From Candidatus Saccharimonadota bacterium (GTDB lineage: Bacteria; Patescibacteriota; Gracilibacteria; Absconditabacterales; Absconditicoccaceae), in assembly GCA_030429145.1 (NCBI GenBank), contig JAUIDC010000001.1, forward strand, positions 600,001-632,000: DNA of 32,000 nt, written 5' to 3'. Below the pieces are notes generated by a model, which saw only the letters and a program-made list of their open reading frames with translations, did no database searches and had not been told where the DNA came from. Made by a program: the position numbers and the translations under genes. Shown here in pieces: positions 1 to 32,000 of the stretch (positions are counted from its first letter, which is position 1; each line of letters opens with the position of its first letter).

Positions 1-123
1 CTTGTTTGCCGTCCAGCTTATTTTCTCTCGCTTGGCAAAGCTATCCAACGCTAAAAACCCCGCATTGTGGCGGGTATTCTCATATTTCTTTCCTGGATTC
101 CCTAGTCAGACAATTAGTTTCAT
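1..123 (-). CDS. pth: peptidyl-tRNA hydrolase, N-terminal part (gene runs off the window start)
   Basis: Reverse translation from ATG (121-123) gives MKLIV[TGA][35 protein letters not shown]. This is the canonical Pth N-terminus (GLGNPG...TRHN.GF), with the first Gly of GLGNPG encoded by TGA at 106-108. Confidence 0.85.
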
Positions 124-132
124 CACTGAGGA

Positions 133-2568
133 TTACTCCATAACATAAAACTCCATGATATCTCCTTCGAGGATTTTCTTGCTGACTCTGACTTTCATAC
201 CACACTCGTAGCCAGCTTGAATTTCGTCTACGTTCTCCGCTTCACGTTTGAGAGAGGTAACCTTACCCGTTGCATAGATCTCTGCCTCTTCGCCTTCACC
301 GTGTCGGATTCTAAATGAGGCTCCATTTTTGATCTTGCCGTCGATAACCTTTCCACCGATAATCATTTCTTTCTCTTTCTTGTAGAAGATACCGAGCACT
401 TCAAGTTTACCAAGGTATACTTCTTTCTCTTCGATCACGATCATACCCTGAAGAATTTGCTCGATATAATCAGTCATCTCATAGATGATATCGTAGTTTT
501 TTACTGTCGTTTTCATCTGTTCCGCTTTCTTGGCAAGCGAAGCAGTGATAGTCGTGTTGAAACCAAGGAGGAGGGCGTTTGACGCCTGTCCAAGAGAGAG
601 GTCACTGTCTCCAAAATTACCTACATCAGAGTGAACGATCTTGATAGAAAGATTTTCTGGTACCTCAATATTTTCGATAGCATATTTGACTGCCTCGAGA
701 GAGCCGTACGAGTCTGCTTTGAGGATCAGGTTGAGCTGTGCGTCATCTCATGATTGGATCTTTGACATGAGCTGAGCGAGTCCACCTTCGTCTTGCTTCT
801 CTTTCTCTTTTTCAAGGATCTTTGAGATTTTGTTTTGTGCTTCACGCTCGTTGTTTACCACTTCTGCAACACGTCCCGGTTCTGGTACATCACTGAGACC
901 GAGAATCATCACAGGATCTCCACCTTCCACATGTTTTGTCTCTTTTCCTGTCCGGTCGAGCATCTTTCTTACTTTTCCATATGTGTTGTGAATCATCACA
1001 ATATCTCCGACATTGAGTTTTCCGGTGAGAAGGAGAATAGTTGAGAGGACACCCTGTTTGCTATCTTTTGTTGCTTCAAGAACAATACCAACACCATTTC
1101 TTGTCGGATTGTACTTCAGTTCAAGCATCTCAGCGTGTAGTGAAATCGTTTCGAGAAGCTCGTCTACGCCTTGTCCAGTCATGGCAGATACAGGGACGAG
1201 AGGGATATTTCCTCCCCAGTCCTCAGGAGTGAGGCCGTGCTCAGCGAGTTGACCTTTGATGTTGTCTATATTGCCTGTTCCTTTGTCTATCTTCGTGATA
1301 GCAACAATGATAGGTACTCCTGCATCCTTTGCATGATTGATAGCTTCTACTGTTTGTTGCTTGATACCATCGTCAACAGCGATAACAATAACAACAATAT
1401 TTGTAATCTTCGCACCACGTGCACGAAGAGACGTGAAAAGTTCGTGTCCTGGAGTGTCGATGAAAGTGATCTTTTTATCGTTATGTTCAATTTGAGACGC
1501 TCCGATAGACTGCGTGATACCACCAGCTTCTCCACTCACAACATTCGTTTGTCTGAGGTGATCGAGAAGCTTTGTCTTACCATGATCGACGTGACCCATG
1601 ATAGTGACAACAGGAGGTCTTTCTTTGAGGTTTTCTGCTTCTTTGTCAGCAGCGAGTATCGCATTGACGTTTCCTTCTAGCATATCATCCACTGAGATGC
1701 TTGTTGCCTCCTTTCTTACCTTGACGCCGAGCTCTTCGCCAATAAGGTTTGCTGTATCAAAATCGATAGATGAGTTGATGTTCACCATAATTTTATTTTG
1801 AAGAAATTTCTTCATGAGCTCATTGAACGATACACCCATCTTTTCAGAAAACTCTTTCACAGTAATGCTATCACCAATGATGATTTCCTGTTTCTTCACA
1901 AGATTGCCTGATACACCGGCTTCTTTTACTGGTCTTTGTACTGGGATAGACTGCTCTGCAGGAGCTGCTTTTTCTTTCGTTGGAGCAGCTCATTTGCCGT
2001 GAGGTTTTCCTTTGTATGTTCCTTGTGAAAATGAGGTATTAGAAAATGTGTGAAAGGTTTTTCCTGCACTTTCTGATTTCTGAGGAGAGCGTCTTTCGAA
2101 ATTTTTCCTCTCAGGACGTGCTGCGTCTCAGCGCTCTGATCTCCCTTTCTTCTTTGGAGAGTCTTTTCTTTCACTGATGGGAGCTGAGAGGATGACTCTT
2201 GCATTTCCAAAAGAGACCTTGATTTCTTCTAGAGTGTCAGCCTCTTTTGCTGGAGCAGCTTCTTTCTCTTCTGTTGCTACCTCTTCTTTTTTGTCTTCGT
2301 CTTTTGGAGAAAATCCAAGTCATGAGAGAAAGTCGTCGCCACTAAAGAGTTCATCTCCCTTGAGCACTTTATCATCATCTTTCTTAGAGTCTTTTGTAGC
2401 TGCTTTTTTCGCTGAACTTCCAAGTTCTTTTTCGATAAGAGGCCACTCTTCGTCTTTGAGGTTCACAGCTCTTGAGCTAAGCGCCTTTCCTACGACCTTT
2501 TTATAAGCAACGGCGAGTTCTTCTCTCGTTATCTGTAGATCTGATAAAATATCGTTAATTTTTGGCAT
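133..2568 (-). CDS. infB: translation initiation factor IF-2
   Basis: ORF-track pieces 133-516, 748-1899 and 2320-2676 are in one frame, and so is the untracked 1900-2319 stretch. In-frame TGA at 748-750, 1990-1992, 2128-2130 and 2320-2322. GTPase motifs [13 protein letters not shown] and ITKID. Lys/Glu/Ala-rich N-terminal linker. Likely start [18 protein letters not shown] at 2566-2568. True stop TAA at 133-135. Confidence 0.92.
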
Positions 2569-2658
2569 ATAACAAAAATAGGTAACTAAAAATAATAATA
2601 AGGCTATGTATATGGTTTTTTCGAGGGAATACAAGCGGAATACCATAGGTAATAACTG

Positions 2659-2686
2659 TTGCATACGCCCTCTCAATCACTATACT
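2659..2686 (+). promoter_or_regulatory. candidate sigma70-type promoter for cca
   Basis: TTGCAT (2659-2664), 16-nt spacer, TATACT (2681-2686), about 33 nt upstream of the cca ATG. Lies in the divergent infB/cca intergenic region. Pattern match only. Confidence 0.3.
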
Positions 2687-2718
2687 GACCTCAGCAATTT
2701 ATATTGTGCAGATTTTCT

Positions 2719-4389
2719 ATGCATATAGAGGATATCGCTTATCTCAACTGACATCTTCATGAGCTTGCCGGCTACACTTCAGGCAAGCAACTTTTTGTTG
2801 TTGGTGGAGCAGTTCGTGATATTCTTCTTGGTATCAACAAAGAGCCGAAAGACATTGATATGACACTAGCTGGAGAGCCAGATGTTATATTCGCTGCATT
2901 GGAGCAGGCGTCTCGTGACGACTATTCGCTCTTTCGTACAGAGAAATTTGGTACGATGACGATGATTGACAAAAAGACAGAGGTCTCTTATGAGCTTACA
3001 CCATTTCGTGAGGAAGGGGGATACGAAGATCATCGTCATCCTGATCAGATCGCTTGGTCAAACTCTCTTTTAGCAGATGCAAAGAGAAGAGACTTTACTA
3101 TCAATTGTATCTACTATACATTTGTTTCCCGTGGGAAGAGTGCTTCATCAAGCTCATCAACTGTTGACCAAGAGAAGCTGATCAAAGAGCTTAGTAAGCA
3201 TGGATGGTACTACCAAGCAGATTGCTCTCTGCTTATAGTACAGCAACACGAGTTGATTGAAAAGTTATTTGCTGATGGGATATTTCAGGGGGAGGTATTT
3301 GATGCGTGGGTAGAAGAGAGTGATGTGGAAATAAAAGGTGACGTAGGGATTTTGATAGATCCATTTTTTGGTATACAGGATTTGTATAAGTGAGTGCTTC
3401 GTGCTGTAGGGGATGCAAACAAGAGATTTCAAGAGGATGCACTTCGTATATTGCGTGCTGTGAGGATAGTAAATATACTCAATCAAAAGCTTGAACAAGG
3501 TAATTTTGACTTTGAAAAAGAGACCTGGCTTGCGATGAAAGAGCAGCATGCGTTGGTGCCTGGGTTGGCGAAGGAGCGTCTGCATCAGGAGATCGAAAAA
3601 GTGTTCAGAGGAAATAATCCATTTGGATGGGTTGCGCTTATTGATGATATTGGGTTGCTTGCAACGCTATTCCCTGCGTTAGCTGTCAACAAATACGATG
3701 AACAGCCTGTGCGTTATCATCCGTTCGATACGTATTCGCATACATTGTTGACTCTCTGGCAGTTACAGCAGATTAATGACAACTACCTTGTGAAGCTTGG
3801 AATGCTCTATCATGATGTCGGCAAGAAAGATCAATATGCAGCATATGCAGAAGCGACGACGAAAGAAGAGATAGAAGAGATTCATCGTGGTGAAGCAAAT
3901 CATGTTATTTGTGGGCCTGAGTATGCTGCGAGAGATTTTCGTGCTTTAGGATTTTCAAATAAGGAGATAGAAGAGATTCAGTTCTATATTGCATATCATA
4001 TGAGACCTGGACAGATATTGACTGCGAACAAAGAGAATCAACTCAAGAAGGTTCGCAAACTACTATCAGAACATGGGTATGAAAGAGTGAAAAATCTCTT
4101 TGATATTACCGTGGCGGATAGGAAGGGGCAGTTCAATCCATTGCAATCCGACGAGGTGGAGTCGGTACAGCATCTTTATGTTCTCCTTGATAAACTCTAT
4201 AATGAGGAAGGACAGTTCACTATGCGTGAACTGGCTATAGACGGGAATGTTCTTATGGAAGAGTTTGATCTCTCTCCTGGTCCACAGATCAAAGAGCTCC
4301 TCGATAAGGCATTTGACTGGGTGCTTTCAGATATTGCAGCAAGAAATTCCAAAAAAACTATTCTTTCTTATTTACGCTCTCAAGAATAA
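2719..4389 (+). CDS. cca: CCA-adding enzyme / tRNA nucleotidyltransferase with C-terminal HD domain
   Basis: MHIEDIAYLN[TGA]HLHELAGY..LFVVGGAVRDILLG...DIDMT (pol-beta NTase motif). The conserved K-[TGA=G]-VLRAVGDANKRFQEDALRILRA follows. HD region ...MLYHDVGK. In-frame TGA at 2749-2751 and 3391-3393 joins ORFs 2860-3393 and 3394-4389. Stop TAA. Confidence 0.88.
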
Positions 4390-4401
4390 TCATATACTCT
4401 T

Positions 4402-6960
4402 ATGGAAAACGCACATCATACAAAACGTTCCCGTTCTAGTTGGATAGGGAGACAACCCAAAAATCTCCGAAAACATATTGTCTACTCGGTTCTTTACTCT
4501 CCACGATATGGCAGGACACTGTTGGCTATGGCTATTTTTTTGATTGTCATGAAAATGCTTCTCGTGCACGAAGCGTATGGGGCGGCACTTATAGGCGAAA
4601 CGGTAGTGAAAACGGTGATGAATTATGTGAGTATCCTTGCGAGCGATTTTATGATAGTGGGACTTATTTTTGTCGGAGCATTTCTCAATGCGGTGATTCG
4701 TAGAAAACGATTTAAGCGATACGTGAATATTACGGCATTGTTACTTATGCTTTTGTATGTGAGTGATATGTTCTCTATCTACTATTTTCAGAGTAGGTTC
4801 TACCTGATGGACCTACTACAGTTTTTTTCATTTAAAAATGGAGCAGGATATGTGCTCTATCCGTTAGCGTGGAGTATCCTTTTTATTACCATCTTATTTG
4901 TCTTCTTTTTGATGGTACAGAAATGGTTTCCAGTGATTCGCAGAAGAAACATGCACCTGAGGGCAGCGTTGGTGTTCTTTGCTATGTGTGTCCTGTTTAG
5001 TGGTGTTAACTTATTGAGCAATACCGATTTTCACTTCCGTAATAATGTGTTGGCAATCAACATCCAAGAGATTGTGGCTGTGGCATCAGCAAATGATAGA
5101 GATGCTTTGCCAGGAAGGGAGATCCAGTCATATGAGAGCTACTTTGTACCGATGGTTGGGCAGAAGAGACAAGGGGATGTGATTGTGCTTTTTGCTGAGT
5201 CTTTCTCCACAGTAGATTCTAAGAGGTCGGGAGGAATACACGACTATCTGACAGGTTTTGATACCATAGCGGCCGATGGTATCACCTATACCAATTTTAT
5301 TGCCAATGGTTGTACCTCAGAGACAGCGCATATTGCATTGTTGCAGGGAATCGAACCATGGGAGGTCCTACAGGGTTCGTCGGAAGACTATAAGAACTAT
5401 AAGGCGTATACAGAGTCCCTCCCTCAGTTTTTCAATGGATTGGGTTATGAGACCGTGTTTGTGAGTACGGCGCCGCTATCGTTTCTCAACCAAAGAGAGT
5501 TCTTGAAAGAAACGGGCTTTTCGAAGATAGTCGGTGAGGAGGCATTTGCCGGAACACAGCAATATGTCTTCAACGCGGCGCCGGATAAAGCCTTGTACGA
5601 CAAGGCGTTACAGATAGTGCGCAACAAAGATCAGCAGAAGCCGCTCTTCCTTTCTCTGCAGACGATCTCTTCGCATAAGCCTTATAACTCGCCAGATGGT
5701 ACAAGTGAGCGTGCAGCTTTTGCCTATTCAGATGCTCAGCTTCTCTCATTTTACGAGCAGCTGAAGGTAGACTGATTTTTCAAACATGGTACGCTCATAG
5801 TTGTGGGAGATCATAGAAAAATGGAACCGCTCGAACGTGAGGAGTTTCAAAAATTCGGAACGAGTGCTAACGGAAGAGCTGTGTTGGCCGTCGTGTGACC
5901 TCACATTGCGAAAGATGCATATCATGAAGATGTATTACAGCATATTGATCTCTTTTCGTCACTAAAATATCACTATGGTACTGGACAGATCTCACTCAAC
6001 AGTCGCTTCAATGATGTGTTTGGGAACTATCAGTGAAGAAAACAGGCAGTCCGCTACTGCCAGTATGTGGAAAGACAATATATAGCAACTGATAAGGATA
6101 ATGACTCTTGGACTATTAGCGCAACGACAGATAGATTAAATCTTGCCTATATCAATGCCTATAAAAAATTTCAGCAATACACAGGAAGTCTCAGCAAAGA
6201 CATGGCAGAGATAGAGAAACTGAAGCGTGAAAAAGGTCTCGTTATCATCTGACATCAGTGAGCGCCGATGATAGAAGCACCAAATAGTTACTCAAGTTTT
6301 ATGCGTGCGAAAGAGCAGTGAGCGGATGGTATCGAGTTCGATATCTCTCTCACAAAGGACAACTATAGCGTCGTACTACACGGTCCTGATATCGGTCGTA
6401 CGCAATGTAAACATAGCGAAGGCAAAAGAAATGTTGCTGAGTTTACACTCAAAGAGCTAAAAGACAACTGTAAGCTCTTCAATGGTGAGCCAGTGTTGAC
6501 ACTCACGGAGGCGCTACAAAAAACACAAGGTCAGTTCCAATACTATTTTGTCGATGTGAAGGTGTTTGACCAAACAAAAGTGGAGCAACAAATGAAAGAT
6601 GTTGTCGAGACAGTGAAAAAACTTCGTATGTCAGACGAGACAATTATATCCAGCTATGATTTTACGGGAAATAGAGCCTTGTGAGTATTTGGAAAAAGGA
6701 TGACACTCGCATGGGACACCTTTGATTCGAGCGAATATCTTGCTATGAATGATGCACCATATCAGTACTTTATGTTGCCATATATGTCGTATGAGCCTTA
6801 CATGGTTGAGTATGTCAGAGCTCACGGAAAGGAGCCTGTCGCTTATACTATCAACAACGTACAGGATGTGAAAAAACTCTATGATATGGGTGTCAAAATC
6901 ATCATGACAGACAACATACCTATGATCATCGAGTGGCTGAGAAGTGAACAAAATCAGTAA
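4402..6960 (+). CDS. membrane-anchored LtaS-like sulfatase (alkaline-phosphatase superfamily) fused to a C-terminal glycerophosphodiester phosphodiesterase (GDPD)-like domain
   Basis: One frame joins ORFs 4402-5775, 6067-6252, 6493-6684 and 6700-6960 through seven TGA codons (5773, 5896, 6034, 6250, 6259, 6319, 6682). N-terminus is multi-TM. Sulfatase-type motifs: LFAESFS, NGCTSETAHIALLQG, SSHKPY, GDHRKMEP. The GDPD-like tail starts around 6235: VII[G]HQ[G]APMIEAPNSYSSFMRAKEQ[G]ADGIEFDISLTKDNYSVVLHG...IIMTD. Stop TAA. Confidence 0.75.
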
Positions 6961-7033: not shown

Positions 7034-7423
7034 ATGAGTACTATTTTCTCTCGTATCATTGCTGGTGAGATACCAGCACAAAAAGTCTATGAGGATGATC
7101 GTCTGATCGCCATCTTGGATATCAACCCTATCCAAAAGGGACACACGTTACTCATTCCCAAAAAGCCTTACAGATGGCTTGAGGAGTGTGACGACGAACT
7201 TATTGCTCATCTTTTTCTCACAGCTAAGGAGTTGATGATCAATATGAAACAAACATTGGGCTGCGAGTATGTTCACCTCAATGTAGAGGGTGTCGATGTG
7301 CCACATGTCCACGTTCATCTCATCCCTTCTACGACTGCAGAGAAAAATGGTCAGTGGAACCATGTATCATATGCGGAGGGAGAAATGGAAGCATATCAGA
7401 AAAAATTAGCAATGAATATTTAG
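7034..7423 (+). CDS. HIT-family (histidine triad) nucleotide hydrolase/transferase
   Basis: 129 aa. MSTIFSRIIAGEIPAQKVYEDDRLIAILDINP...GHTLLIPKK and the histidine triad HVHVHLIP. Stop TAG. Confidence 0.85.
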   Translation: MSTIFSRIIAGEIPAQKVYEDDRLIAILDINPIQKGHTLLIPKKPYRWLEECDDELIAHLFLTAKELMINMKQTLGCEYVHLNVEGVDVPHVHVHLIPSTTAEKNGQWNHVSYAEGEMEAYQKKLAMNI

Positions 7424-7455
7424 TTGGTTACCCATAACAAGCGATGTCAGTAAAA

Positions 7456-7896
7456 ATGGATGTGGTGCTCTTACAGAGCGTGAAATGACTGTGAAATAAG
7501 GATGATATTGTTGCTGTGGCAGTGCCATATGCGAAAAATGTGTTGTTTCCACAAGGCAAGGCAAAAGCTGCAGATAAACAGGCTATGGATGCTATGAAAC
7601 AGAAGCAGCAAAAGAAGCAAAAACATGCCGAAGAGTCGCAAGAGGCGTTTACTTCTCTCCAACAATGGGTTAAGGATGGTGGTATTGTGAAAATACACAA
7701 GAATGCTACGCCACAGGGGCATCTCTATGAGAAGCTTTCAGTAAAAGATATCCAACACGCCATCTACGAGATATGCGAGATATCTATCCCTACTGATTGG
7801 ATTGTGCTCGATGAAAAAGTGAATATGATCGGAGATCATCAAGTGGTGGTAACCTATAACAAAAAAACTATCAAACTCTCTCTTACTATACAATAA
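7456..7896 (+). CDS. rplI: 50S ribosomal protein L9
   Basis: MDVVLLQSVK[TGA]L[TGA]NKDDIVAVAVPYAKNVLFPQGKAKAA matches the L9 N-domain (MKVILLEDV.NLGKKGD...GYARN.LIPKG.A). The second TGA (7492-7494) sits on the conserved LG. The C-terminal domain corresponds to ORF 7516-7896. Alternative start ATG at 7444. Confidence 0.85.
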
Positions 7897-7921: not shown

Positions 7922-9475
7922 ATGAAAAAAATTATAACACTTATCTCTACTGCTGTACTTTTCTCGGCGACGACCTTTGCAGCTGGGGAGATGACTATGA
8001 GTGAACCAAAAGAGGATAAAAGACCAGTCTCTATGAGAGAGTTCTTTACCGAATTTTGTGAAGAAGTGGGTTACGGAGTCCCTGAAGTTTCTTTGCAGAT
8101 TGATTTGAGAATTCCTGGGGTAGAGCGTCAGGACGTTCTCTATAGTGCTTTGCAGAAGTGTGTCTATCTTGGTTTTATCCCCAACAGTAGAGTAAACTAC
8201 AGATGGGATGCAACTATCACACCAAAATTCATCAATATCTTTGTGAGTAAGTATCTTCATATAGATCCAGACGTCAATGAGGACGAAAATGTTGTTACTC
8301 GTACACAGCTCAGAAATATGATGAGAAGCATCCCTAACTATAAGATGCTGATGTCGCTTGGTGAAGTAAGTAGTTGGTGATCAAACGGTAATTATGCAAG
8401 TCCGCTTATCAGAGCAGATGGATTTGCCATCTTGTCTCAAGTCTACCTGTTGCTCAAAACAGAGTACCGAGACAGTGATAAGGTATCGGATAAGTCTCTC
8501 CTGGAATGAGCTATCAAGGGTATGGCTGATGCTGTCGGTGATGTGAATACGCAGTATTTCCCACCTGCTGAAGCAGAGCAATTCAATGACCAGCTCAATG
8601 GTAGCTTCGAATGAATAGGTGCGTATCTCGAACTCATTCGTCCAGGTGAAGTTATGATTACTTCTGTTATCAAAGACTCTCCAGCGCAGAAGGCAGGCCT
8701 TCTACCAAATGATCGTATCACTAAGGTTGATGAGTATGAGATAGCAGAAAATGATTCGCTACAGGCTATCATCGCGAAGATCAAATGACCTGCAGGCACC
8801 ACAGTGGAACTCACTATCAGACGTAACGGTGCTGTGAGAGTGATACCTGTGAAGAGAGCAGAGATTATCATCGATATGATAGAGTATGAACTTAGAAACA
8901 ATATCCCTGTTATCAGTATCTACTCGTTCGGGTGGGGCGTAGCTACAGAGTGGAATAAGATTATCGAATCGAATAAATCTGCTATCCAGCGTGCAGGAAA
9001 AATCATTATTGATCTGAGAAATAATCCGGGAGGAAGTCTCGGAGATGTGGCTCAGATGCTCGGTGATTTCGTGCCAGCGGGAGAGCCAGTGGTCTATACG
9101 ACTACCAGATACTATGATGAGGCTATCGCTTCTGACTGACGCGATACTATAGACTTTTCGAAGATCAAAATAGTTATACTGATCAACGAGGCTACCGCGT
9201 CAGCATCTGAAATCATGGCTGGTACGATAAAAGACTATATGCCTAATAACACAACGCTTATTGGTCAAACTTCGTTCGGTAAGGGTTCTGTGCAGTATCT
9301 TCAGCCACTCGCTGATAATAGTAGTTTCAAGGTTACCATCGCTCATTGGTATACAGGTAAGACAAGGCAAGCTATCGATGGTGTTGGTATCAAGCCAGAC
9401 ATTGCTGTAGAACTTGATCATGAACAATTGAAGCAGGGCTATGATACACAGATGGCTGCTGCCATGAGACAGTAA
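7922..9475 (+). CDS. carboxy-terminal processing protease (S41 family, PDZ-containing), secreted
   Basis: Joins ORFs 7922-8380, 8804-9139 and 9215-9475 through five in-frame TGA codons. Signal peptide MKKIITLISTAVLFSATTFAAG. FE[TGA]IGAYLE. PDZ segment SPAQKAGLLPNDRITKVD. IIDLRNNPGGSL. ILINEATASASEIMAG...GQTSFGKGSVQ. Stop TAA. Confidence 0.88.
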
Positions 9476-17503: not shown

Positions 17504-17565
17504 AATCAAAATAGCTGTCAAAGGCTGTTTTTTGTTTTATATGTCTAGATAATGACAAACAACCT

Positions 17566-19211: not shown

Positions 19212-21075
<1,864 letters not shown>

Positions 21076-21096: not shown

Positions 21097-21378
21097 ATGA
21101 GTGAGTTGCACTTGAAAGATATATTATTGTCAGAGGGTTTCCCAATAGTTTATGAATGGCATGATGAACCTGGGACAGTATATCCATTACATTCGCATCA
21201 GCACAAAGTAAGTTTCTATGTAATTCGTTGATCAGTTACATTTCATTTTGATTGAGCTGAGAAGATTATAACCTCAGGACAAAGATATGACGTACCAATT
21301 AAGATAGAACACTCAGCATTAGTATGACCTGAGGGATGTGATTATGTCGTGTGACAAATGAATGAGAACGATGCATAA
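21097..21378 (+). CDS. cupin-domain protein (93 aa)
   Basis: Absent from the ORF track (four in-frame TGA codons in 93 codons). MSELHLKDILLSEGFPIVYEWHDEPGTVYPLHSHQHKVSFYVIR[G]SVTFHFD[G]AEKIITSGQRYDVPIKIEHSALV[G]PEGCDYVV[G]Q. Cupin motifs H.H...G and P....H. Stop TAA. Confidence 0.7.
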
Positions 21379-23640: not shown

Positions 23641-23664
23641 AAAAAAAAAGAGCTAGAAGCTCTT
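23641..23664 (-). terminator. rho-independent terminator after the Nudix gene
   Basis: On the minus strand, AAGAGCT-tct-AGCTCTT followed by a T9 run. The hairpin overlaps the Nudix TAA (23663-23665). Confidence 0.7.
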
Positions 23665-24139
23665 ATTTTATTTGCTCGTGACTCTTGATTTTTCCATCTT
23701 CAGAGAAGTGAAATATATACTCAAAATACTCTCCATCAAACATTCTCGGCATCCGATAGATGTCATCGTCCCACATTTTATCATATGGGATCTCATCTAC
23801 ATCAAACCATTGAGACAGAAGCTCATCAGTTTCCTGAAAGTCACCTGTGTAGTCCTTGATGACAAATACATGAGCCTCTTGATCTCGGTCTGGTTTGTTC
23901 TCGTAGTAGAGTTTATTGATACCGACATGTTTAAAAGAGTCTTCTGGCAGATCAATGCCGGTTTCTTCTTGTAGTTCTCTTTTCGCAGACTGAAGAAGAG
24001 TCTCTTCTCATTCGATCTTTCCACCAGCGCCATTCCATTTACCGAGAGAGATAGTAAACCCAGAGTTGGTTTTCTTTTTGGCGCAGAGGAGTACTTGGCC
24101 CTGAGGGTTAAATACGTAGATGAGTGAAGTTTGTTGCAT
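23663..24139 (-). CDS. Nudix hydrolase (MutT-like)
   Basis: Missed by the ORF track, which reports 23797-24144 in a different frame. MQQTSLIYVFNPQGQVLLCAKKK...LGKWNGAGGKIE[TGA]EETLLQSAKRELQEETGI is a complete Nudix box GX5EX7REUXEEXGU, with TGA (24008-24010) on the conserved Gly. 158 aa. Stop TAA. Confidence 0.85.
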
Positions 24140-24159: not shown

Positions 24160-26112
24160 CTATTTCTTCTCAGCTTTCTTCAACTCGCCACGATGTTCTT
24201 CTATGATTTTTTCGAGAGTAGCTTCTGCATTTTCAGATTCGTTCATCACTTTTTCAAACTCTTCTTTAGTGAGATATTCCTTTTCATAGAGGACATCTGC
24301 AAGCTTGTCGATAAGTTCTTTATTTGCGAGTAGGATGGCTTTTGCTCTTGTATAGGCATTTTCTATGAGCTCTTTCACTTTCATATCAATAAGCTCTGCC
24401 GTTTTTTCAGAGTATGGTTTGTAGAGCTGATATTCTGAGCTTCCTTCTTTTGTTGCATAGGTCAAAGTTCCTAGTTCTTCGTCCATGCCGTATTTCGTGA
24501 TCATATCTACAGCAATCTTTGTCACTCTTTCAAAGTCGTTTGCTGCACCAGTCGTAATATTTTCCTTACCGAAGAATATTTCTTCTGCGGCACGTCCACC
24601 GAGTAGGCCAACAAGTTCATCTAAGAACTTTGCTTTGCTATGAAGATATTTGTCTTCTGTCGGCATCATCCATGTGACACCAAGTGCCATACCACGAGAT
24701 ACAATAGATATTTTTTCTACTGGATCAGACTCAGGGAGATGGAATGCAGTAACTGCATGTCCTAGCTCATGATATGTCACGATCTTCTTCTCCTGATCTT
24801 TCAGAGATTTAATTTTCTTCTCTGGTCACATTACCATCTTTTCAAGACCATAGTCGAGGTCTTTATTGGTGATAGCAGTTCTATTGTCCTTTGCAGCTTT
24901 AAGGGCAGCTTCATTGAGGATAGTCTCTATGTCCGCACCAACAAATCCACTTGTTTTACGAGCAAGCGATTCGATATCGGCACTCTTGTCAAGCTTTTTA
25001 TTTTGTAGATGATACTTGATGATAAGTACTCTTTCCTCAAGAGTAGGACGTCCAACCATCACCTTACGGTCAAATCTTCCTGAACGCATGAGTGCAGGAT
25101 CGAGTGTGTCCGGTCTGTTTGTTGCAGCAATGACGATCACGCGGGTATCTTTGTCGAACCCGTCCATTTCTGTCAATATCTGATTGAGCGTTTGTTCTTG
25201 CTCTTGGTGACCACCAGTAAATCCAGAGCCACGTCTTTTACCTATTGCATCGATCTCGTCGATAAAAATGATAGCAGGAGCTGCAGCTTTTGCCTTATTG
25301 AAGAGCTCTCTTACTTTTGCTGCACCCATACCAACGAGCATTTCCATAAACTCTGAACCACTTGCAGAGAAAAACGGTACATTTGCCTCGCCTGCAACAG
25401 CTCTTGCCAGTAGTGTTTTACCGCTACCAGGCTGTCCATAGAGAAGTACTCCTTTTGGTACACGAGCACCAGCTCTTGAGAACTTGTTAGGATTTTTGAG
25501 AAATTCCACAATCTCAACAAGCTCTTCTTTCGTCTCTTCCATACCTGCTACATCAGCAAATCTGGTCTTCACATCTTTTTTGCTACTGAGCTTTCCAGCC
25601 TGTATCTTAAATGGCATACCACCACCTTTTGGTCACATGAAGCGTAGAAACACTAGCGCAATGATGACAAAGAAAAGGAGTGGCAAAATGGTCTCAAGGA
25701 ATAGTTTTCACCATACATTTCCTTCTTCACTGGCTGCGGTAATGATAGTGCTACCCGTTACTGAGATACCGAGATCTTTGAGCTCTGTCATCATGGGCTT
25801 CTGTGACGAGAAGACATTGTAGTAAGTAACTTTTACATCACTATTGAATGTCATCAAAGGTATATCAGCCTCCTTGTCTATCTTCTGATATCCTTCCAGT
25901 TTCGTATCATTGATGACTTTTACTCTTTCAAATGTCCCACTTTGGAAAACTGCAAGCCACTCTGTGAGATCCATCTCTTTCGTCTCTTCAACTCTTACTA
26001 GTCTTTTTTGACCAGTTGCATCCGTATTTATCTCAAAACTAGAATTGGCAAAATATAATACTACCGTAACTACCAACGCAAATATAATAAACCAACGAAA
26101 TCCTTTTTTCAT
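24160..26112 (-). CDS. ftsH: ATP-dependent zinc metalloprotease FtsH
   Basis: ORFs 24160-24780, 24826-25617 and 25708-26157 share a frame. TGA at 24826 (VM-G-PEKK), 25633 and 25708. Two TM segments. Walker [19 protein letters not shown]. Walker [13 protein letters not shown] region [20 protein letters not shown]. Zinc site HELGHAV. Start chosen at [15 protein letters not shown] (26110-26112), with an alternative at 26157. Stop TAG. Confidence 0.93.
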
Positions 26113-26238: not shown

Positions 26239-26553
26239 TTACATAGTGGTGACAAGAAACATTACTCCCTTGATTTCAATGGTGATACCCACCATGTATC
26301 CGGCTTTCCAAGCACTGGATTTTTTGTGTGGAAAGACCGAGTGATTGGTAGTAATCAATCCTAACTTATGAAGATAGTAAAGGATTGCTAGTGAGGTGAA
26401 AAACCAACCATGGATGATGCCAAAGACAAATTCATATAATTCACTGTCGGCATCTATGTCTGTATCTTTGATGAGATGGAGAGCAATTGCTCCTAGCCAA
26501 CCACGTCTGAGTATACTCAGATGTAAAACTGCCAAGAAGTACAATAAATGCAT
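26239..26553 (-). CDS. small hypothetical membrane protein (104 aa)
   Basis: Intact ORF, ATG to TAA. Three hydrophobic segments (MHLLYFLAVLHLSIL, FGIIHGWFFTSLAILYYL, MVGITIEIKGVMFLV). Followed by its own terminator. No recognisable motif. Confidence 0.5.
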   Translation of the reverse strand: MHLLYFLAVLHLSILRRGWLGAIALHLIKDTDIDADSELYEFVFGIIHGWFFTSLAILYYLHKLGLITTNHSVFPHKKSSAWKAGYMVGITIEIKGVMFLVTTM

Positions 26554-26642: not shown

Positions 26643-27245
26643 ATGACATACAATCCATACGACCACTATTTCAAACAGGCAAAGAAGTCCGGCTACAAGG
26701 CGAGGAGTGCTTTCAAGTTAGAAGAAATAGACAAGAAATATAAGATTTTTGATAAGAATGTGAAAACAGTCATGGATATTGGGTGTTCGCCAGGTTCCTG
26801 GCTCCAATATGCAAGTGATGCTATGAAGAAAAATAGGATTAAGAATCCGTTAGTAGTTGGTTTTGATATCAAGCCTGCTACAGTTGAGATTCCTGATGTG
26901 CATCGATATGTGCAAGATATCCAAGATACAGAAGCTGTCGAGAAGATTATGGCAGGACATGGAGTAGAAAAATGTGATGCTATCATCTCTGACATGGCGC
27001 CAAACACGATCGGATTTAAGGATATTGATGCGATCAGAAGCATTGAGCTACTTCGTACTACTTTGCCACTATATGAAAAATTTCTTAAAGAGGGAGGCAA
27101 AGCTGTCATCAAAATCTTCATGTGACCTGGCTTTGAAGAGTTCCTTTCTGAGTTCAGAAAGCTCGTTGGTAGCAAAAATGTCAAAACCTTTAAGCCCCAG
27201 GCAACGAGAAAAGAGAGCAAAGAGACTTACATAGTGAAGTTTTAG
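26643..27245 (+). CDS. rlmE: 23S rRNA (uridine-2'-O)-methyltransferase RlmE/FtsJ
   Basis: MTYNPYDHYFKQAKKSGYKARSAFKLEEIDKKYKIF. SAM motif VMDIGCSPGSWLQY. ISDMAPN. VIKIFM[TGA]PGFEEF (conserved Gly of F.G.G). TGA at 27123-27125. True stop TAG at 27243-27245. Upstream alternative start at 26595. Confidence 0.85.
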
Positions 27246-27976
27246 TCTATATCAGGAAGAGCAAATTGGTCGTATACTTGCTTGTCGGTCATGTCCCAGG
27301 CTTTTTCTACATCTTCAGGAAAGAACTTTACTGCATTTGGTTGAAAATATTGCCATTGTAGAAAACTAAATTTTTGTCTTAGACGAGCAGTGATAATGAC
27401 AATGACGGCATTGGGTCTGTTGGTTAATTTATTTTCAGTAACGTGGATAGAGCAGAACTTTCCAGCATCAGGATGACCAAATGGTCAAGGAAACTCAATT
27501 TTTTCATAATAACCACCGTTTCCGTCTTCATCCCATATATCAACATTGTTTGCCTCATTAATTTTGTCTCAGTATTCTGGGGTAACATCATATATGTATT
27601 CGGGATGCTGTAGGAAAAGAATCCTGTCAATAGGCTGTCATTCACCCTTGTCAGCACTGATCTTAGCATTCTTAATAAAAGAGAGCATCTCTCTTTTTGC
27701 ATGCCTTTGTTGGAGCTCTCCTCCTGTATACAATACAGTGAGTATATCGAGATAGTCTGCTAATTCTTCCATGTTATTGGGGTCGAAAGAGCGATATGGT
27801 TTCTCATATTCTCATTTCCATACCATGCTTAACTCTTTCAAAACGCTCTTTATCTCTTCCTTTTGTTCAGGCGAGAAACGCTCAAAGTTCAGTAAGAGCT
27901 GAGAGACTGTGTTTGCACTATGACCCTCATGGAAATCCAACTTTCTCTCTTTGTTGGTTGATCTAGGTGTGTTCAT
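27242..27976 (-). CDS. hypothetical soluble protein (about 244 aa from ATG 27976, about 267 aa if TTG 28045)
   Basis: ORF 27812-28045 continues in frame through TGA at 27812, 27638, 27569 and 27485 to TAA at 27242-27244. ...EQKEEIKSVLKELSMVWK[G]EYEKPYRSFDPNNMEELADYLDILTVLYTGGELQQRHAKREML...WDEDGNGGYYEKIEFP[G]PFGHPDAGKF...NAVIVIITARLRQKF. No TM segment and no motif I recognise. The tracked ORF 27424-27702 is in a different frame and looks spurious. Confidence 0.55.
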
Positions 27977-28056: not shown

Positions 28057-28689
28057 ATGGCTACAATTGCGTTTCTCATTTATTTTTGCACGATAGGGTT
28101 GATGCACGAAGGTCTGTTTCAAGCGTTAGGAGATTCTCGTAATGTCTACTTGTCGACACAGCTTTCTTTTGAGCAGAGCAATGCGTTAATAGGTACTAGA
28201 CAGCAAATTCTAGAGAATTTTGGAGAAGAACAGATAAAAGAATTGCCGTGGGTGCATCATTTGACTCGATCGTTTTTGGGTACGAAGAGTGCGGAGCAGT
28301 TGAAAGATTTGCATGATAGACTAGTGAAAGTCTGGCCGGAGTTGAAACATTATCATGTCGCTTTCCATAAACTTGGACGATTTCGTAGCTTTGTGAACAA
28401 TAGACCCATCATTTTTCTCGAGCCATCAGAGCAAGTAAACAAGGAGAGACTGCTAAAATTTCGACAGGCACTCAGGATGGATGAGTGGAGTCCAAAAATA
28501 TCGATAGATGACTTTTCACCACATATTACTTTAGCGCAGCTGGCAGAAAGTACTGAAGATCAGCTTGTAGAGGCATTCTTGGCAGAAAATCCTCATCTTG
28601 CACATGAGATATATCCATCTCTCGATACCTTATATTTCCAAGGGAAACATGATAAAACGAAGATTTCTGTACAGATTGTGCAGTCGTAA
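28057..28689 (+). CDS. 2H-phosphoesterase superfamily protein (2'-5' RNA ligase / LigT-ThpR-like)
   Basis: Two H-x-T/S motifs in the right spacing and context: WVHHLTRSFLG and FSPHITLAQL. An internal start at 28102 (MHEGLFQAL...) is equally plausible. Stop TAA. Confidence 0.7.
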   Translation: MATIAFLIYFCTIGLMHEGLFQALGDSRNVYLSTQLSFEQSNALIGTRQQILENFGEEQIKELPWVHHLTRSFLGTKSAEQLKDLHDRLVKVWPELKHYHVAFHKLGRFRSFVNNRPIIFLEPSEQVNKERLLKFRQALRMDEWSPKISIDDFSPHITLAQLAESTEDQLVEAFLAENPHLAHEIYPSLDTLYFQGKHDKTKISVQIVQS

Positions 28690-28756: not shown

Positions 28757-30088
28757 ATGAAAATTGGACTTATTGGAGCTACCAATGTCGGGAAGTCGAC
28801 ACTATTTAACCGTTTACTCGGGAGTTTTCGTGCAATTGTCACGGATATTCACGGTACAACAAGAGAGCTCCTTCGTGATCACTCTATCCTTTCTGATCTT
28901 GCTGGTACAGAGCTTATAGATAGTCCCGGACTGGATAACTTTGAGCAAGAGATTCCTTATATTCAAAAGATTATTGCAGAAGCCGATCTGCTTCTCTTTG
29001 TTGTTGATGGCAAAAAGGGGCTTACTTCAAAGGAGGAGAAGATTCATGATATGATCCTTTCTCAGGGAGTAAAAGATAAGACGATTTTGGTGGTGAACAA
29101 ACTAGAAGGGAATTTTATTGATAAGAAATACACGCTTGCGTTGACCGACTATTATTCACTTGGTTATAAGCATATTGTTGGTGTTGCTGCAAAGCATGGT
29201 GAAAATATTGATATCTTGTTGGAAGATATTCAGCAATTGAAAGAGGTCTACAAACTTGATGAGTCAAAACTGGAGGAAAACCTCGAAGAGGATGTTATTA
29301 ATCTGGCTATTGTCGGGAAACCAAATGCTGGAAAATCTTCACTACTAAACTTTCTTGCAAAGGACGCTATTGCACACGTGGACGACAAACCGGGAACGAC
29401 GCTTGACTATATCACGACCGATATTACTATCGGAAAACAACTATACAGATTGTATGATACCGCAGGTATTCGCCGTGGGGCGAGGGCAGCGCAGTTAGAA
29501 AAAATTGCGTGGGAGAAAACATTTAAGATGATAGAGTATGTGAAGCCTTTGGTTATTATGATGATAGATATTACCGAGTCGATTACGCATATGGATATGA
29601 AGATTATTGGTGATATGATTCGTTTTCATGTGCCGATTATTATCGTGGTGAACAAGGTTGATCTCGTGTCAAAAAAGGAACTGGAACAGAAGATGGAGTT
29701 GATAGTGAAATATCTGGAGATGGCAAAGTGGATACCGATTGTACCGATTTCTGCTAAGGAGGGGACAGGTGTTGCGCAGCTTTTCAGTTTTATCAAGAAG
29801 ATCTATGCTGACATGGGTATGCGTATCACTACTGCACAGCTTAACAAGATCCTTGGTGAGGCAATGGTGAAAAATCCACCGCGTTTTCCGAAAAACAAGA
29901 TCTGTCGTTTGTATTATGCCTCACAGGTGAGTAATCATCCGCCCAAATTTCTGATGTTTATTAACTCCTTGGAGAAGAGGAACTTTGCGTTTACGAGGTG
30001 GCTTGAAAATGTGATTCGTCGTTCGTTTGGTTTCGTAGGAGTACCTCTCATTATTGAGTTTAAAGAGAAAGAGGATAGACATAAGTAA
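28757..30088 (+). CDS. der: ribosome-biogenesis GTPase Der (EngA), tandem GTPase domains plus KH-like C-terminus
   Basis: G1 motifs GATNVGKSTLFNRL and GKPNAGKSSLLNFL. DSPG and DTAG. NKLE and NKVD. C-terminal ...PKFLMFINS...YLENVIR-type tail. 443 aa with no in-frame TGA. Confidence 0.92.
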   Translation: MKIGLIGATNVGKSTLFNRLLGSFRAIVTDIHGTTRELLRDHSILSDLAGTELIDSPGLDNFEQEIPYIQKIIAEADLLLFVVDGKKGLTSKEEKIHDMILSQGVKDKTILVVNKLEGNFIDKKYTLALTDYYSLGYKHIVGVAAKHGENIDILLEDIQQLKEVYKLDESKLEENLEEDVINLAIVGKPNAGKSSLLNFLAKDAIAHVDDKPGTTLDYITTDITIGKQLYRLYDTAGIRRGARAAQLEKIAWEKTFKMIEYVKPLVIMMIDITESITHMDMKIIGDMIRFHVPIIIVVNKVDLVSKKELEQKMELIVKYLEMAKWIPIVPISAKEGTGVAQLFSFIKKIYADMGMRITTAQLNKILGEAMVKNPPRFPKNKICRLYYASQVSNHPPKFLMFINSLEKRNFAFTRWLENVIRRSFGFVGVPLIIEFKEKEDRHK

Positions 30089-30149: not shown

Positions 30150-30791
30150 ATGAAAGATATCAATTTTTACCGCGTCTTCAAGGACGACGGTCTAAAACTC
30201 GGCTGGAAACACGCAAAAAAAGATTTCTTTTTCTTTTTGCAGGTGTTTGTGCTTGTTGGGATAGCAAGTGCGATTCCTATGATTGTCAATTGGATATATG
30301 GTATGCCATTTGATACTCCAAACTTTGGCGATGTGATCTCGACATTGTTGAGTCTTATATTTAGCTTTGGTATGATCAAAATTTTCATCCATTTTGTTCG
30401 TAAGGGGAAGGCAGATCTAAAGGATTTGCGAAATCATGACTGGGTGCGTTTTCTTCGGTGGTTTTTGACGAGAATAGTGACAGCTGTTCTTATCGGAGTA
30501 GGTATGGTATTGTTGATTGTCCCTGGTATCTACGTTGCTGCAAGACTCTATCTCTATGAGTACTATGTGGTAGACCAGAAGTTAAATACGATAGAGGCTA
30601 TCAGTGCAAGCTGGGAGGTGACAAAAGGTCATGTATGGCAGATCATTGGTATTGGACTGTTATCTTTTGGTATTCTGTTGTTGGGAACGCTCGCGCTTGG
30701 TATTGGTCTTCTTTGGGCTATACCGACAGTGAAACTTGCCCAGGCTACGCTCTATAAGAAGCTGACTTCACATGATGAGTATCTAGCGTAA
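30150..30791 (+). CDS. hypothetical polytopic membrane protein (213 aa)
   Basis: Intact ORF, ATG to TAA, with about five TM segments. The layout resembles DUF975/YciC-like integral membrane proteins, but I cannot confirm a family. Confidence 0.6.
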   Translation: MKDINFYRVFKDDGLKLGWKHAKKDFFFFLQVFVLVGIASAIPMIVNWIYGMPFDTPNFGDVISTLLSLIFSFGMIKIFIHFVRKGKADLKDLRNHDWVRFLRWFLTRIVTAVLIGVGMVLLIVPGIYVAARLYLYEYYVVDQKLNTIEAISASWEVTKGHVWQIIGIGLLSFGILLLGTLALGIGLLWAIPTVKLAQATLYKKLTSHDEYLA

Positions 30792-31201
30792 TGCGTGCAT
30801 TGAGCTGGAAAGAGCCATACGGCTCGCTCATGCTCTGCGGAAAAATAGAAACAAGAACCCGGTCAACGAACTATCGCTGACCGGTTTTGCTATGCTGCAG
30901 TCAGAAAGGGTATACTGATAAGGAGCTGCTGCAGTGAGCAGGAGAGAAACAGTATGGGCGTATCAAGCAAGCGCTAGGTGGCAGAGAACTGCAGCATGGC
31001 CACGCTATCGCCGTAGGCGAGCTGATAGAGTGCAGGCCGATGAGACCTGAAGACGCCGATGCCTGCTTCGTTGACTATCGTCCCGGCCTGCGATGTCATG
31101 TCTATACCAATGTGAAACCAATCCAGCCCATTCCCTTTAAAGGTGGGCAGAGGCGAAAGAAAATCGATGAGAATATATTGCTACAGATCAGGTATCTATA
31201 A
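30791..31201 (+). CDS. ASCH-domain (PUA-like fold) protein, 136 aa
   Basis: Absent from the ORF track (two in-frame TGA codons). MRALSWKEPYGSLMLCGKIETRTRSTNYR[G]PVLLCCSQK...HGHAIAVGELIECRPM resembles the ASCH pattern (W..L...GKK.ETR.W.T.YRG.LLIHA). The start ATG overlaps the preceding TAA (TAATG at 30789-30793). Stop TAA at 31199-31201. Confidence 0.65.
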
Positions 31202-31206
31202 TAGAA

Positions 31207-31233
31207 AAACTCTCCAAGCGGAGAGTTTTTTTT
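31207..31233. terminator. bidirectional rho-independent terminator
   Basis: AAACTCTCC-aagc-GGAGAGTTT followed by TTTTT, with an A-run upstream. The T-run overlaps the TAA (31232-31234) of the convergent DUF2231 gene. Confidence 0.8.
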
Positions 31234-31756
31234 ATGGTAAGAACTGCATAATTACTTTTACCATCGGATCAATTTCTGGTCAGTAGACCATGGCTCCACC
31301 AAGAGCTCAGGTGATGGTCAAAGCGAGAAGTCAGCCAATAGCAAGTATGTACAGTACGCCACTTCTTTTATAGAGAAAAGCTATCTTTTGTAGCAATCTA
31401 TGAGCCCAGCTACCTATCATTTTTGCCCCTAAAGAGGTCCTTACACCATCATACAATATCCACTGTGAAACATATCCCAACGTTGCCAACCCATAGAGCC
31501 AGTTTGAGAGATTACCAAAGTTTTCGTGTCGTTCAAGTATTCTTTGGGCGCCGTACCCAGCGTCTTCCATTGCCTCGCCTGAGGAAAGAGCAGCTTGTAT
31601 ACCAACCCATCCTACAACGATGAGAAATAGCTTAATATATCGAACAGTTCTATTGTGTCTCACCTTGGGAAAGAGAGATGCTATTTCAAGGAGGCTATAT
31701 ATGGTAAGTAGAGCAATGGGGAAGTGTACAACGACAGGATGGATTGTATCGAACAT
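31232..31756 (-). CDS. DUF2231-type membrane protein (174 aa)
   Basis: MFDTIHPVVVHFPIALLTIYSLLE is the DUF2231 HP..VHFPIAL signature. ORF 31331-31756 extends through TGA at 31331, 31301 and 31274 (...LAIG-G-LLALTIT-G-ALGGAMVY-G-PEIDPMV...) to TAA at 31232-31234. Confidence 0.7.
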
Positions 31757-31862
31757 GAACTAATAGAAAATATATAAAATGGAAAGTTTATAAAAAACAA
31801 ACAATACTTTCCTATCTATACGTAATTGCTACTAAATTACAAAAAATTTTTCTATAAATAAA

Positions 31863-31894
31863 ATAGTATGCCCGTTTATGTGGAGACATACTAT
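31863..31894. terminator. 8-bp inverted repeat, possible terminator for a gene entering from the right edge
   Basis: ATAGTATG-(16 nt)-CATACTAT with T-rich sequence on both sides. The long loop makes it a weak call. Confidence 0.3.
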
Positions 31895-32000
31895 TTTGTG
31901 AGTGTTTTTAGTTGGGGATGTTTTATCTTATGGATTACTCCATAACTACGATAATCCAGGGATATTTGGCATACCACCTGATCAACCACCAAGCATACCT

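Follow-up and report, generated by a model that had tools for sequence, protein, structure and literature searches.

A 32-kb housekeeping stretch of the Absconditabacterales/SR1 type in which UGA probably encodes glycine, and CGA and CGG probably tryptophan

With respect to the 32 kb of DNA at positions 600,001 to 632,000 of contig JAUIDC010000001.1 (hereafter the window, meaning the whole stretch analysed, with a guanine-plus-cytosine (GC) content of 41%), the question is in which genetic code its genes are written. An initial annotation had answered that the entire window uses genetic code 25, in which UGA is a glycine codon and never a stop. The results presented here uphold this answer for UGA but not for CGA and CGG, which code 25 keeps as arginine. 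With a probability of about 0.8, the window is a housekeeping stretch from an uncultivated bacterium of the Absconditabacterales/SR1 type in which UGA would encode glycine and CGA and CGG tryptophan, in which only UAA and UAG would serve as stops, and in which CGU, CGC, AGA and AGG would encode arginine. The meanings proposed for the three codons are shown by the conservation of the columns in which they stand, by codon exchange with relatives and by profile scores.

If TGA is taken as a sense codon, the window comprises 31 genes including a partial pth, and 93% of it is coding. These genes contain 80 in-frame TGA codons, which are spread over 23 genes and absent from eight, as compared with the 70 to 80 in 31 genes that had previously been counted by hand; the eight TGA codons quoted there from known motifs (at 106, 24826, 12099, 7492, 24008, 3391, 27123 and 19260) are all in frame, and the gene at 13054-16305, for which five had been reported, has exactly five. 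None of the 30 closed genes ends in TGA (TAA 23, TAG 7), as had been claimed, and neither frameshifts nor in-frame TAA or TAG codons occur across the 31 genes. The initial annotation had also proposed to compare coding density and gene length between codes. In greedy non-overlapping sets of open reading frames (ORFs) over the window, for which the set of stop codons was varied, table 11 yields 49 ORFs with a coverage of 79% and a mean length of 172 amino acids, as against 30 ORFs, 95% and 339 amino acids with TGA as a sense codon. Since there is no comparable gain when TAG or TAA is freed instead, the mean lengths then being just 178 and 184 amino acids, the pattern of in-frame TGA codons goes beyond chance. 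In addition, Pfam domains span the TGA positions and bear out the identities of the genes.

For the meaning of UGA, TGA codons were masked as X and the masked proteins aligned to solved structures (PDB). Glycine stands opposite codon 6 of Pth ('VGLGNPG', 106-108) and codon 17 of L9 (7492) in five of five structures each, opposite codon 55 of TrxB (12099, 'ENxPG') and codon 17 of CsaA in all five of the alignments shown, for TrxB also in five of five loci, and opposite codon 63 of CsaA in all but one of those shown. At the FtsH column of the TGA at 24826 (codon 429), the Thermotoga structures have glycine and the structures 2DHR and 4EIW have leucine, the former being T. thermophilus FtsH engineered to carry the mutation G399L; amongst 61 loci fetched with FtsH, the same column holds glycine in 54, TGA in five and leucine in one, and the five loci with TGA all belong to relatives rich in in-frame TGA. 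Mixed and less conserved columns were found for TrxB 21 (11997; A/G/S), L9 15 (7486; N/H), CsaA 78 (G/A), RlmE 161 and FtsH 135 and 160. Of the eight motifs in which glycine had been expected at a TGA, those of Pth, FtsH, TrxB, L9 and CsaA indeed have it, and RlmE (27123) is mixed, with glycine in E. coli FtsJ and Trm7 but serine in Spb1. The remaining two are not diagnostic: the TGA of the CCA enzyme (3391) faces lysine or arginine in the solved structures, and the Nudix TGA (24008, codon 44) aligns to threonine or glutamate, and to aspartate in one locus, the canonical glycine of the Nudix box being the residue after the TGA, which is glutamate here.

Comparison with recoded relatives gave the same picture. 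The TGA codons of 15 such relatives are opposite a glycine of the window in 274 of 435 cases, which matches the profile of their GGA codons (156 of 251), and tryptophan is absent from the eight commonest partners listed for the relatives' TGA. We further used a Codetta-like likelihood with one vote per column, unambiguous homolog codons only and BLOSUM62 conditional probabilities, a crude proxy which recovered the correct residue for 12 control codons. Over 37 TGA columns, whose tabulation had been suggested by the initial annotation, glycine came out best, with asparagine at -13, arginine at -23 and tryptophan at -36 nats. Accordingly, the tRNA_bind domain of csaA scores 58.6 bits with TGA as glycine vs 49.5 bits with TGA as tryptophan, and DUF2231 scores 26.4 bits with TGA as tryptophan vs 28.4 bits (CGA as arginine). 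The ORF at 21097-21378, previously labelled a cupin, does match Cupin_2 with 30.1 bits, but only with TGA as glycine, the match being lost when TGA is read as tryptophan or masked. Outside the window but on the same contig, 3.5-6.5 kb to the left of the window start, lies an isoleucyl-tRNA synthetase (IleRS) gene (L151 13407-16613, minus strand) with 14 TGA and three CGA codons; ten of these TGA codons are found in columns where G, alone or together with W, predominates. That UGA encodes glycine and not tryptophan, and that it never terminates genes in the window, is well supported by these comparisons. Under this assignment, UGA supplies 80 of 710 glycine codons (11%). Columns with TGA are far less often glycine-conserved than columns with GGN (11 of 29 vs 130 of 194), suggesting a recent origin for many of the TGA codons, at sites under weak constraint.

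The second question concerns CGA and CGG, which occur 41 and 14 times in the window next to 121 TGG codons, are distributed over 20 of the 31 genes, and are found in aromatic or hydrophobic contexts. Opposite the two adjacent CGA codons 83-84 of the flavodoxin-like protein (18040-18045), five PDB structural families have WW, WW, WW, YW and YW, and CGG129 of the Nudix protein (23753-23755) is opposite the tryptophan of 'DDSYWFP' in MTH1 (Trp117); phenylalanine is found opposite CGA80 of CsaA in all PDB alignments shown and opposite CGA108 of LspA in PDB LspA. The gene for the family-2 glycosyltransferase (GT2) has seven CGA/CGG codons, five of which are TGG in the DNA of the closest relative (L148). 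TGG was seen in relatives opposite GT2 codons CGA 170 and 242 and CGG 153, 173 and 312, columns 153 and 173 containing nothing but TGG, CGA and CGG, as well as opposite CGA 54, 133, 184, 221 and 240 of the Polysacc_synt gene.

In the pooled comparison with recoded relatives, CGA and CGG of the window are opposite tryptophan 16 times and arginine four times in 73 cases, whereas CGT, CGC, AGA and AGG are opposite tryptophan twice and arginine 456 times in 799 cases (p = 3e-24, Fisher's exact test). In turn, CGA and CGG of the relatives are opposite a tryptophan of the window 17 and seven times, respectively. The likelihood is highest for tryptophan both over 19 CGA columns (arginine -22 nats) and over the fewer, nine, CGG columns (arginine -15 nats), and it returns arginine for CGU, CGC, AGA and AGG, which are R or K in relatives. 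Reading CGA/CGG as tryptophan instead of arginine raises the scores of Flavodoxin_2 from 92.9 to 106.9 bits (+14.0), of Peptidase_A8 in lspA from 73.4 to 80.0 bits (+6.6) and of DUF2231 from 28.4 to 33.9 bits (+5.5). All three CGA codons of IleRS are in columns in which most of the 120 homologs have tryptophan, namely at 'ESVW-W-VF' (W 93, R 22), 'AL-W-EKG' (W 82) and 'TN-W-YIR' (W 106, R 14). CGA and CGG thus behave as tryptophan and not as arginine codons in the window, and would supply 55 of 176 tryptophan codons (31%), with a CGA usage of 41 per 10,000 codons. Code 25 as initially proposed therefore holds for UGA but not for these 55 codons. The LigT-like protein, which has eight matches in the representative library, carries CGA71 and CGA136 in columns where its few homologs are divided between W and R. 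CGA755 of infB had at first been suspected of being a conserved arginine of IF2, a suspicion that was dropped as the sole tool datum for this column is one lysine and the column is uninformative; E. coli and Bacillus IF2 have leucine or isoleucine at this position and the conserved arginine one residue later.

How would such codons be read? UGA would be decoded by a tRNA-Gly(UCA) with loss of release factor 2 (RF2), as suggested by the literature (PMC8629427). CGA and CGG would be decoded by a tRNA(UCG) and a tRNA(CCG) of tryptophan identity (G73, no A20) charged by TrpRS, as suggested by the literature together with one relative, and CGU and CGC by a tRNA-Arg(GCG), as suggested by the literature and a relative. 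In the relative in question (L068), a tRNA(UCG) at 13994-14066 (minus strand) combines G73 with G1.U72 and lacks A20 in its D-loop; these are the criteria for tryptophan-type tRNAs in Shulgina and Eddy (PMC8629427). A U27-C43 mismatch leaves this tRNA with an anticodon stem of four pairs. Arginine features, namely A73 and A20, are found in the tRNA-Arg(GCG) of L067. In the window, ARAGORN and Rfam detected only a tRNA-Lys(CUU) and a tRNA-Trp(CCA), and they detected nothing in ~18 kb of flanking sequence from the two Logan contigs in which the window sequence recurs. The tRNA-Trp(CCA), which has A1:U72, G73, a 5-bp anticodon stem and an encoded CCA, reads UGG only; its stem agrees with the expectation that organisms with UGA as glycine avoid tRNA-Trp with a 4-bp stem (PMC13092985).

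A number of observations weigh against the proposed code or fit it poorly. A few CGA/CGG codons are in columns with basic residues in homologs, namely ATPase 140 (K/L/R/H), Polysacc_synt 445 (K/K/R/S) and 240 (K three times, W once), and GT2 325, which is opposite CGC, AGA and GAT. None of these positions is well conserved; they belong to membrane interfaces or linkers. Reading CGA/CGG as tryptophan costs the generic Polysacc_synt profile 5 bits. Such a drop is to be expected if a rare amino acid is put at eleven unconserved columns, but it provides no support. Alignment columns were available for only 28 of the 55 CGA/CGG codons, many of these columns with two to five sequences, and the GC content of the window (0.41) is above the range of 0.26-0.38 reported for clades with reassigned CGA/CGG (PMC8629427). 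Neither a tRNA(UCA), tRNA(UCG) or tRNA(CCG) nor prfB was found in the ~50 kb of this genome searched, which in the case of prfB is uninformative for the rest of the genome, and the meanings of all three codons are drawn from comparing sequences.

Furthermore, two TGA codons are at tryptophan or aromatic columns. In GT2, codons 180-181 (16878-16883) read TGA-TGA; the column of codon 180 is glycine (GGT in relatives), and codon 181 (16881-16883) is TGG in L148 and L146, the two closest relatives, its column being confined to W and R in 17 database homologs, with Glyco_tranf_2_3 scoring 3.7 bits higher with tryptophan at this position. In IleRS, TGA occupies codon 22, a column with tyrosine or phenylalanine in 113 of 120 homologs. 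As new TGA codons would in such a code arise most simply by transition from TGG, both can be read as missense changes, GT2 codon 181 being a Trp-to-Gly change at a conserved site if UGA is glycine; some cross-reading between UGA and UGG may also occur at these two codons.

These misfits lend themselves to other explanations. Under plain table 25, UGA would be the sole change, and the occurrence of CGA/CGG at tryptophan columns would come from real substitutions of tryptophan by arginine or from noise in the alignments. The basic columns at ATPase 140, Polysacc_synt 445 and 240 and GT2 325 would fit, as would the profiles of Polysacc_synt, DUF975 and tRNA_bind, which are 0.7 to 5 bits lower with tryptophan; however, arginine is worse than tryptophan by 22 nats for CGA and 15 nats for CGG, it is found opposite just 4 of 73 CGA/CGG codons vs 456 of 799 of the other arginine codons, it would have to replace the invariant tryptophans of flavodoxin 'PLxWF', IleRS 'NWYxR' and MTH1, and relatives freely exchange CGA/CGG with TGG, all of which renders a pure code 25 very unlikely. 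Also unlikely, if to a lesser degree, is an intermediate or ambiguous state in which CGA and/or CGG are read as both tryptophan and arginine because of competing tRNAs or mischarging, or in which full reassignment is limited to one of the two. It would accommodate clear tryptophan columns alongside a few basic ones and the support of CGG by nine columns only, and both the possibility of ambiguous translation and a complicated history of CGG in the sister Gracilibacteria have been noted (PMC8629427), but CGA-CGA at 'WW' and CGA at the invariant tryptophan of IleRS would be costly if arginine were inserted often, and the weak conservation of the basic columns argues in the same direction. Doubtful, but worth stating, is the extension that the lineage is at a later stage of the capture of arginine codons by tryptophan than so far described, the residual misfits at CGR and UGA being due to ambiguous decoding and the window thus offering a snapshot of a reassignment in progress. 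The basis offered for it is the GC content of 41% in combination with CGA/CGG making up about one third of the tryptophan codons; if true, it would imply Arg/Trp ambiguity at CGR codons and Gly/Trp cross-reading between UGA and UGG.

Translating UGA as tryptophan (table 4), as in Mycoplasmatales and several insect endosymbionts, is suggested at first sight by the many database proteins of relatives with tryptophan at these columns and by the TGA codons GT2 181 and IleRS 22. Yet tryptophan is 36 nats below glycine, the database tryptophans are TGA codons translated by table 4 at positions where the DNA has TGA or GGN, with the columns of GGN codons in the query being equally mixed between G and W, tRNA_bind loses 9 bits and the Cupin_2 match vanishes with tryptophan, and the sole tRNA-Trp seen has a CCA anticodon; this reading therefore has next to no probability. 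The same is true for the standard code with the TGAs as true stops, be it in a pseudogene-rich region, in a faulty assembly, or with selenocysteine or programmed read-through. Nothing beyond the presence of in-frame TGA speaks for it, and against it are 80 TGA codons in 31 genes free of in-frame TAA/TAG and frameshifts, TGA or GGN at the same positions in independent relatives, the identical sequence assembled independently in Logan, and the result of the Rfam search of the window, in which no selenocysteine insertion sequence (SECIS) or other element besides the two tRNAs was found. The selenocysteine and pseudogene readings were dropped on these grounds.

The choice of the translation table has practical consequences. 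The identical window sequence is present in two Logan contigs from run ERR3428547 (41,063 and 24,458 bp), assembled independently, for which public table-11 gene calls are available. In these, infB is split into 133-516, 748-1899 and 2320-2568 and ftsH into three pieces, which coincide with the fragments given in the initial annotation, ProRS is cut to 349 amino acids, the S41 protease is in four pieces, and csaA, the cupin, the Nudix gene and 30791-31201 are left without any call; such fragmentation and loss, including these four genes, had been foreseen for a table-11 annotation. The database proteins of relatives (P0002-P0019, P0028-P0147) have mixtures of G and W at glycine columns and of W and R at tryptophan columns; in these homologs, columns of TGG codons in the query show 12% R, and columns of GGN codons in the query show W. 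When the genes of relatives were looked up, their DNA was flagged as not translating to the query, and wherever the DNA was fetched the codons behind the W/R and G/W mixtures were CGA/CGG and TGA. The mixtures arise because the relatives have been translated with tables 11, 4 or 25, and they carry errors into the alignments, profiles and predicted structures of this clade. Given the proposed code, every standard NCBI table gives a faulty translation of this DNA: with table 11 most genes are broken up or missed, table 4 puts tryptophan at 80 glycine sites, and table 25 puts arginine at 55 tryptophan sites, including catalytic or structural tryptophans. To our knowledge, there is no protein-level proof of the sense-codon reassignment in Absconditabacteria. 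A testable peptide is that of the flavodoxin-like protein, which with tryptophan would remain intact as ELVFIFPLWWFDAPAVLK, whereas with arginine it would be cut inside by trypsin ('FPL-R-R-FDAPAVLK').

The genes and tRNAs of the window are listed below.

Table. Genes and tRNAs of the 32-kb window, with the evidence for each and its TGA, CGA and CGG codons
Feature	Coordinates	Strand	Evidence and codons
pth, 5' part, runs off window start	1..123	-	1 TGA (106-108), 1 CGA; full gene present on L151
infB (IF2)	133..2568	-	Pfam GTP_EFTU, IF-2, IF2_N; 4 TGA, 1 CGA, 1 CGG
CCA-adding enzyme/poly(A) polymerase family with HD domain	2719..4389	+	Pfam PolyA_pol, PolyA_pol_RNAbd, HD; 2 TGA
Membrane sulfatase-GDPD fusion protein	4402..6960	+	Pfam Sulfatase and GDPD; 7 TGA, 4 CGA
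HIT-family protein	7034..7423	+	Pfam HIT; no TGA, CGA or CGG; served to find the identical Logan contig
rplI (L9)	7444..7896	+	Pfam L9 N and C domains; 2 TGA
S41 C-terminal processing protease with PDZ	7922..9475	+	Pfam Peptidase_S41, PDZ; 5 TGA, 1 CGA
491-aa hypothetical, N-terminal hydrophobic segment	9556..11031	-	Weak SusF_SusE match below cut-off only; 0 TGA, 2 CGA
mscL	11148..11435	-	Pfam MscL; no recoded codons
lspA (signal peptidase II)	11471..11905	+	Pfam Peptidase_A8; 1 TGA, 1 CGA, 3 CGG
trxB	11937..12872	+	PDB TrxR alignments; 2 TGA
1083-aa DUF8128/TraG-TrwB-like P-loop ATPase	13054..16305	+	Pfam TrwB_AAD_bind, TraG-D_C; DUF8128 from Logan call; 5 TGA, 1 CGA
Family-2 glycosyltransferase (GT2)	16341..17366	+	Pfam Glycos_transf_2; 6 TGA, 4 CGA, 3 CGG
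tRNA-Lys(CUU)	17430..17504	+	ARAGORN, Rfam
tRNA-Trp(CCA)	17618..17692	+	ARAGORN, Rfam
Flavodoxin-like NAD(P)H quinone reductase	17794..18366	+	Flavodoxin_2; 2 TGA, 3 CGA; CGA-CGA at 18040-18045 at 'PLWWF' motif
DoxX membrane protein	18397..18819	+	Pfam DoxX; no recoded codons
86-aa hypothetical membrane protein	18928..19188	+	ORF only, no family match; 1 TGA, 1 CGA
csaA	19212..19550	+	tRNA_bind domain; 3 TGA, 1 CGA
proS	19531..21075	+	Pfam tRNA-synt_2b, ProRS-C_1; 1 TGA, 2 CGA
Small cupin	21097..21378	+	Cupin_2 (with TGA as Gly); 4 TGA
Polysacc_synt flippase-like membrane protein	21408..23009	-	Pfam; 14 TGA, 7 CGA, 4 CGG
192-aa MFS-like half-size protein	23011..23589	-	Pfam MFS_1, half of profile; 6 TGA, 2 CGA
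MTH1-like Nudix hydrolase	23663..24139	-	PDB MTH1 homologs; 1 TGA, 1 CGA, 1 CGG
ftsH	24160..26112	-	Homolog columns; 3 TGA, 0 CGA/CGG
104-aa hypothetical membrane protein	26239..26553	-	ORF only; no recoded codons
rlmE (FtsJ)	26643..27245	+	Pfam FtsJ; 1 TGA, 1 CGA
244-aa hypothetical	27242..27976	-	No family match under any translation; 4 TGA
LigT/2H-phosphoesterase-like protein	28057..28689	+	Pfam 2_5_RNA_ligase2; 0 TGA, 3 CGA
der (EngA)	28757..30088	+	Pfam MMR_HSR1 twice, KH_dom-like; no recoded codons; exact protein on Logan contig
DUF975 membrane protein	30150..30791	+	Pfam DUF975; 1 CGA, 1 CGG
136-aa protein, earlier labelled ASCH	30791..31201	+	No Pfam match under any translation; 2 TGA, 2 CGA, 1 CGG
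DUF2231 membrane protein	31232..31756	-	Pfam DUF2231; 3 TGA, 2 CGA

The recoded codons are unevenly spread, with 14 TGA and 11 CGA/CGG in the Polysacc_synt gene and no CGA/CGG in ftsH, trxB and der. For TGA, the unevenness between genes is not significant after correction for multiple testing, the probability of having none being 0.04 for der and 0.013 for hyp497. With respect to gene identities, the label 'ASCH' of the initial annotation for 30791-31201 could not be substantiated, a Pfam match being absent under every translation tried. Directly adjoining the start of the Polysacc_synt gene is the 192-aa MFS-like ORF (23011-23589), which matches the first half of the MFS_1 profile only and may represent either a truncated gene or a transporter of half size. 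The order of the ATPase followed by GT2 is the same in relatives (L146-L150, L148), and metagenome contigs contain at least 596 relatives of the ATPase, most of them from non-recoded bacteria resembling the Candidate Phyla Radiation (CPR). A metagenome scan with the ATPase yielded 80 loci of which almost none are syntenic with the window, so that few columns were obtained for the neighbouring genes. Downstream of GT2 the window has the pair of tRNA-Lys(CUU) and tRNA-Trp(CCA); L148 has both ~820 bp apart and not adjacent, and L146 has a tRNA-Lys(CUU) nearby.

As to the origin of the window, the best FtsH matches amongst GTDB species genomes are a metagenome-assembled genome (MAG) with 69%, a candidate division SR1 bacterium with 68% and another MAG with 65%, followed by two MAGs labelled Peribacteria, though rich in in-frame TGA, and by Ca. 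Vampirococcus lugosii JAEDAM01 with 56-57%, and the best named match of IleRS is SR1 bacterium Aalborg_AAW-1. The closest relatives thus are SR1/Absconditabacteria-type genomes, in agreement with the SR1/Gracilibacteria-type lineage given in the initial annotation, and the use of CGA/CGG as tryptophan points to Absconditabacterales (PMC8629427, PMC13092985). The source of the window is therefore, as judged by its closest matches, most likely a UGA-recoded member of the Patescibacteria (GTDB class JAEDAM01) from the Absconditabacterales/SR1. Two loci from GTDB species genomes (L002 and L003; CAZWWJ01 and CAZACQ01) are titled 'uncultured Candidatus Peribacteria bacterium' and have 38 and 57 in-frame TGA codons in the aligned genes, mostly opposite glycine of the window, indicating that they are members of the recoded clade or that the label is wrong.

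Amongst known codes, table 25, the code of SR1 and Gracilibacteria that is routinely assigned to GTDB class JAEDAM01 (Absconditabacterales and BD1-5), shares with the window the in-frame glycine codon UGA, with only UAA and UAG as stops, and has its representatives amongst the closest relatives, which are SR1/Absconditabacteria and recoded 'Gracilibacteria' MAGs; this meaning of UGA has been known since 2013 (Campbell et al. 2013 and Rinke et al. 2013, as cited in PMC8629427). It differs in that it keeps CGA/CGG as arginine, whereas the 55 codons in 20 of the 31 genes of the window behave as tryptophan. With table 4, as used by Mycoplasmatales, Hodgkinia, Zinderia and others, the window has in common that UGA is a sense codon, that loss of RF2 is expected and that the genome is reduced, but UGA is tryptophan there and would be glycine here, and gene callers falling back on table 4 give rise to spurious tryptophans in the proteins of relatives. 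The capture of an arginine codon of the CGN box by tryptophan is also known from Anaerococcus and the RFN20/Onthovivens Bacilli (PMC8629427, PMC13092985); in these, however, only CGG has changed, CGA being arginine and UGA a stop, in contrast to the window with both CGA and CGG affected on a background of UGA as glycine.

The closest correspondence is with the Codetta prediction for Absconditabacteria, UGA as glycine in combination with CGA and CGG as tryptophan (Shulgina and Eddy 2021, eLife, PMC8629427), which has been restated and taken as given for Absconditabacterales in a survey of 2026 (PMC13092985). The new meanings agree for all three codons, arginine is encoded mainly by AGA and CGU, and the tRNA(UCG) of the relative L068 has the tryptophan-type features described in that paper (G73, no A20, G1.U72); its authors also considered ambiguous translation to be possible and the history of CGG in the sister Gracilibacteria to be complicated (PMC8629427). 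The differences concern the GC content, 0.41 in the window vs the reported 0.26-0.38, the usage of CGA, 41 per 10,000 codons in the window vs '<37 in all species', the latter figure referring to Pfam-aligned codons (PMC8629427), and, as a matter of degree, the 31% share of CGA and CGG in the tryptophan codons of the window. As it matches this prediction, the three-codon code itself is already known from the literature, and the window, as a further and independent instance of it, lends support to the sense-codon reassignment that Codetta predicted for Absconditabacteria.

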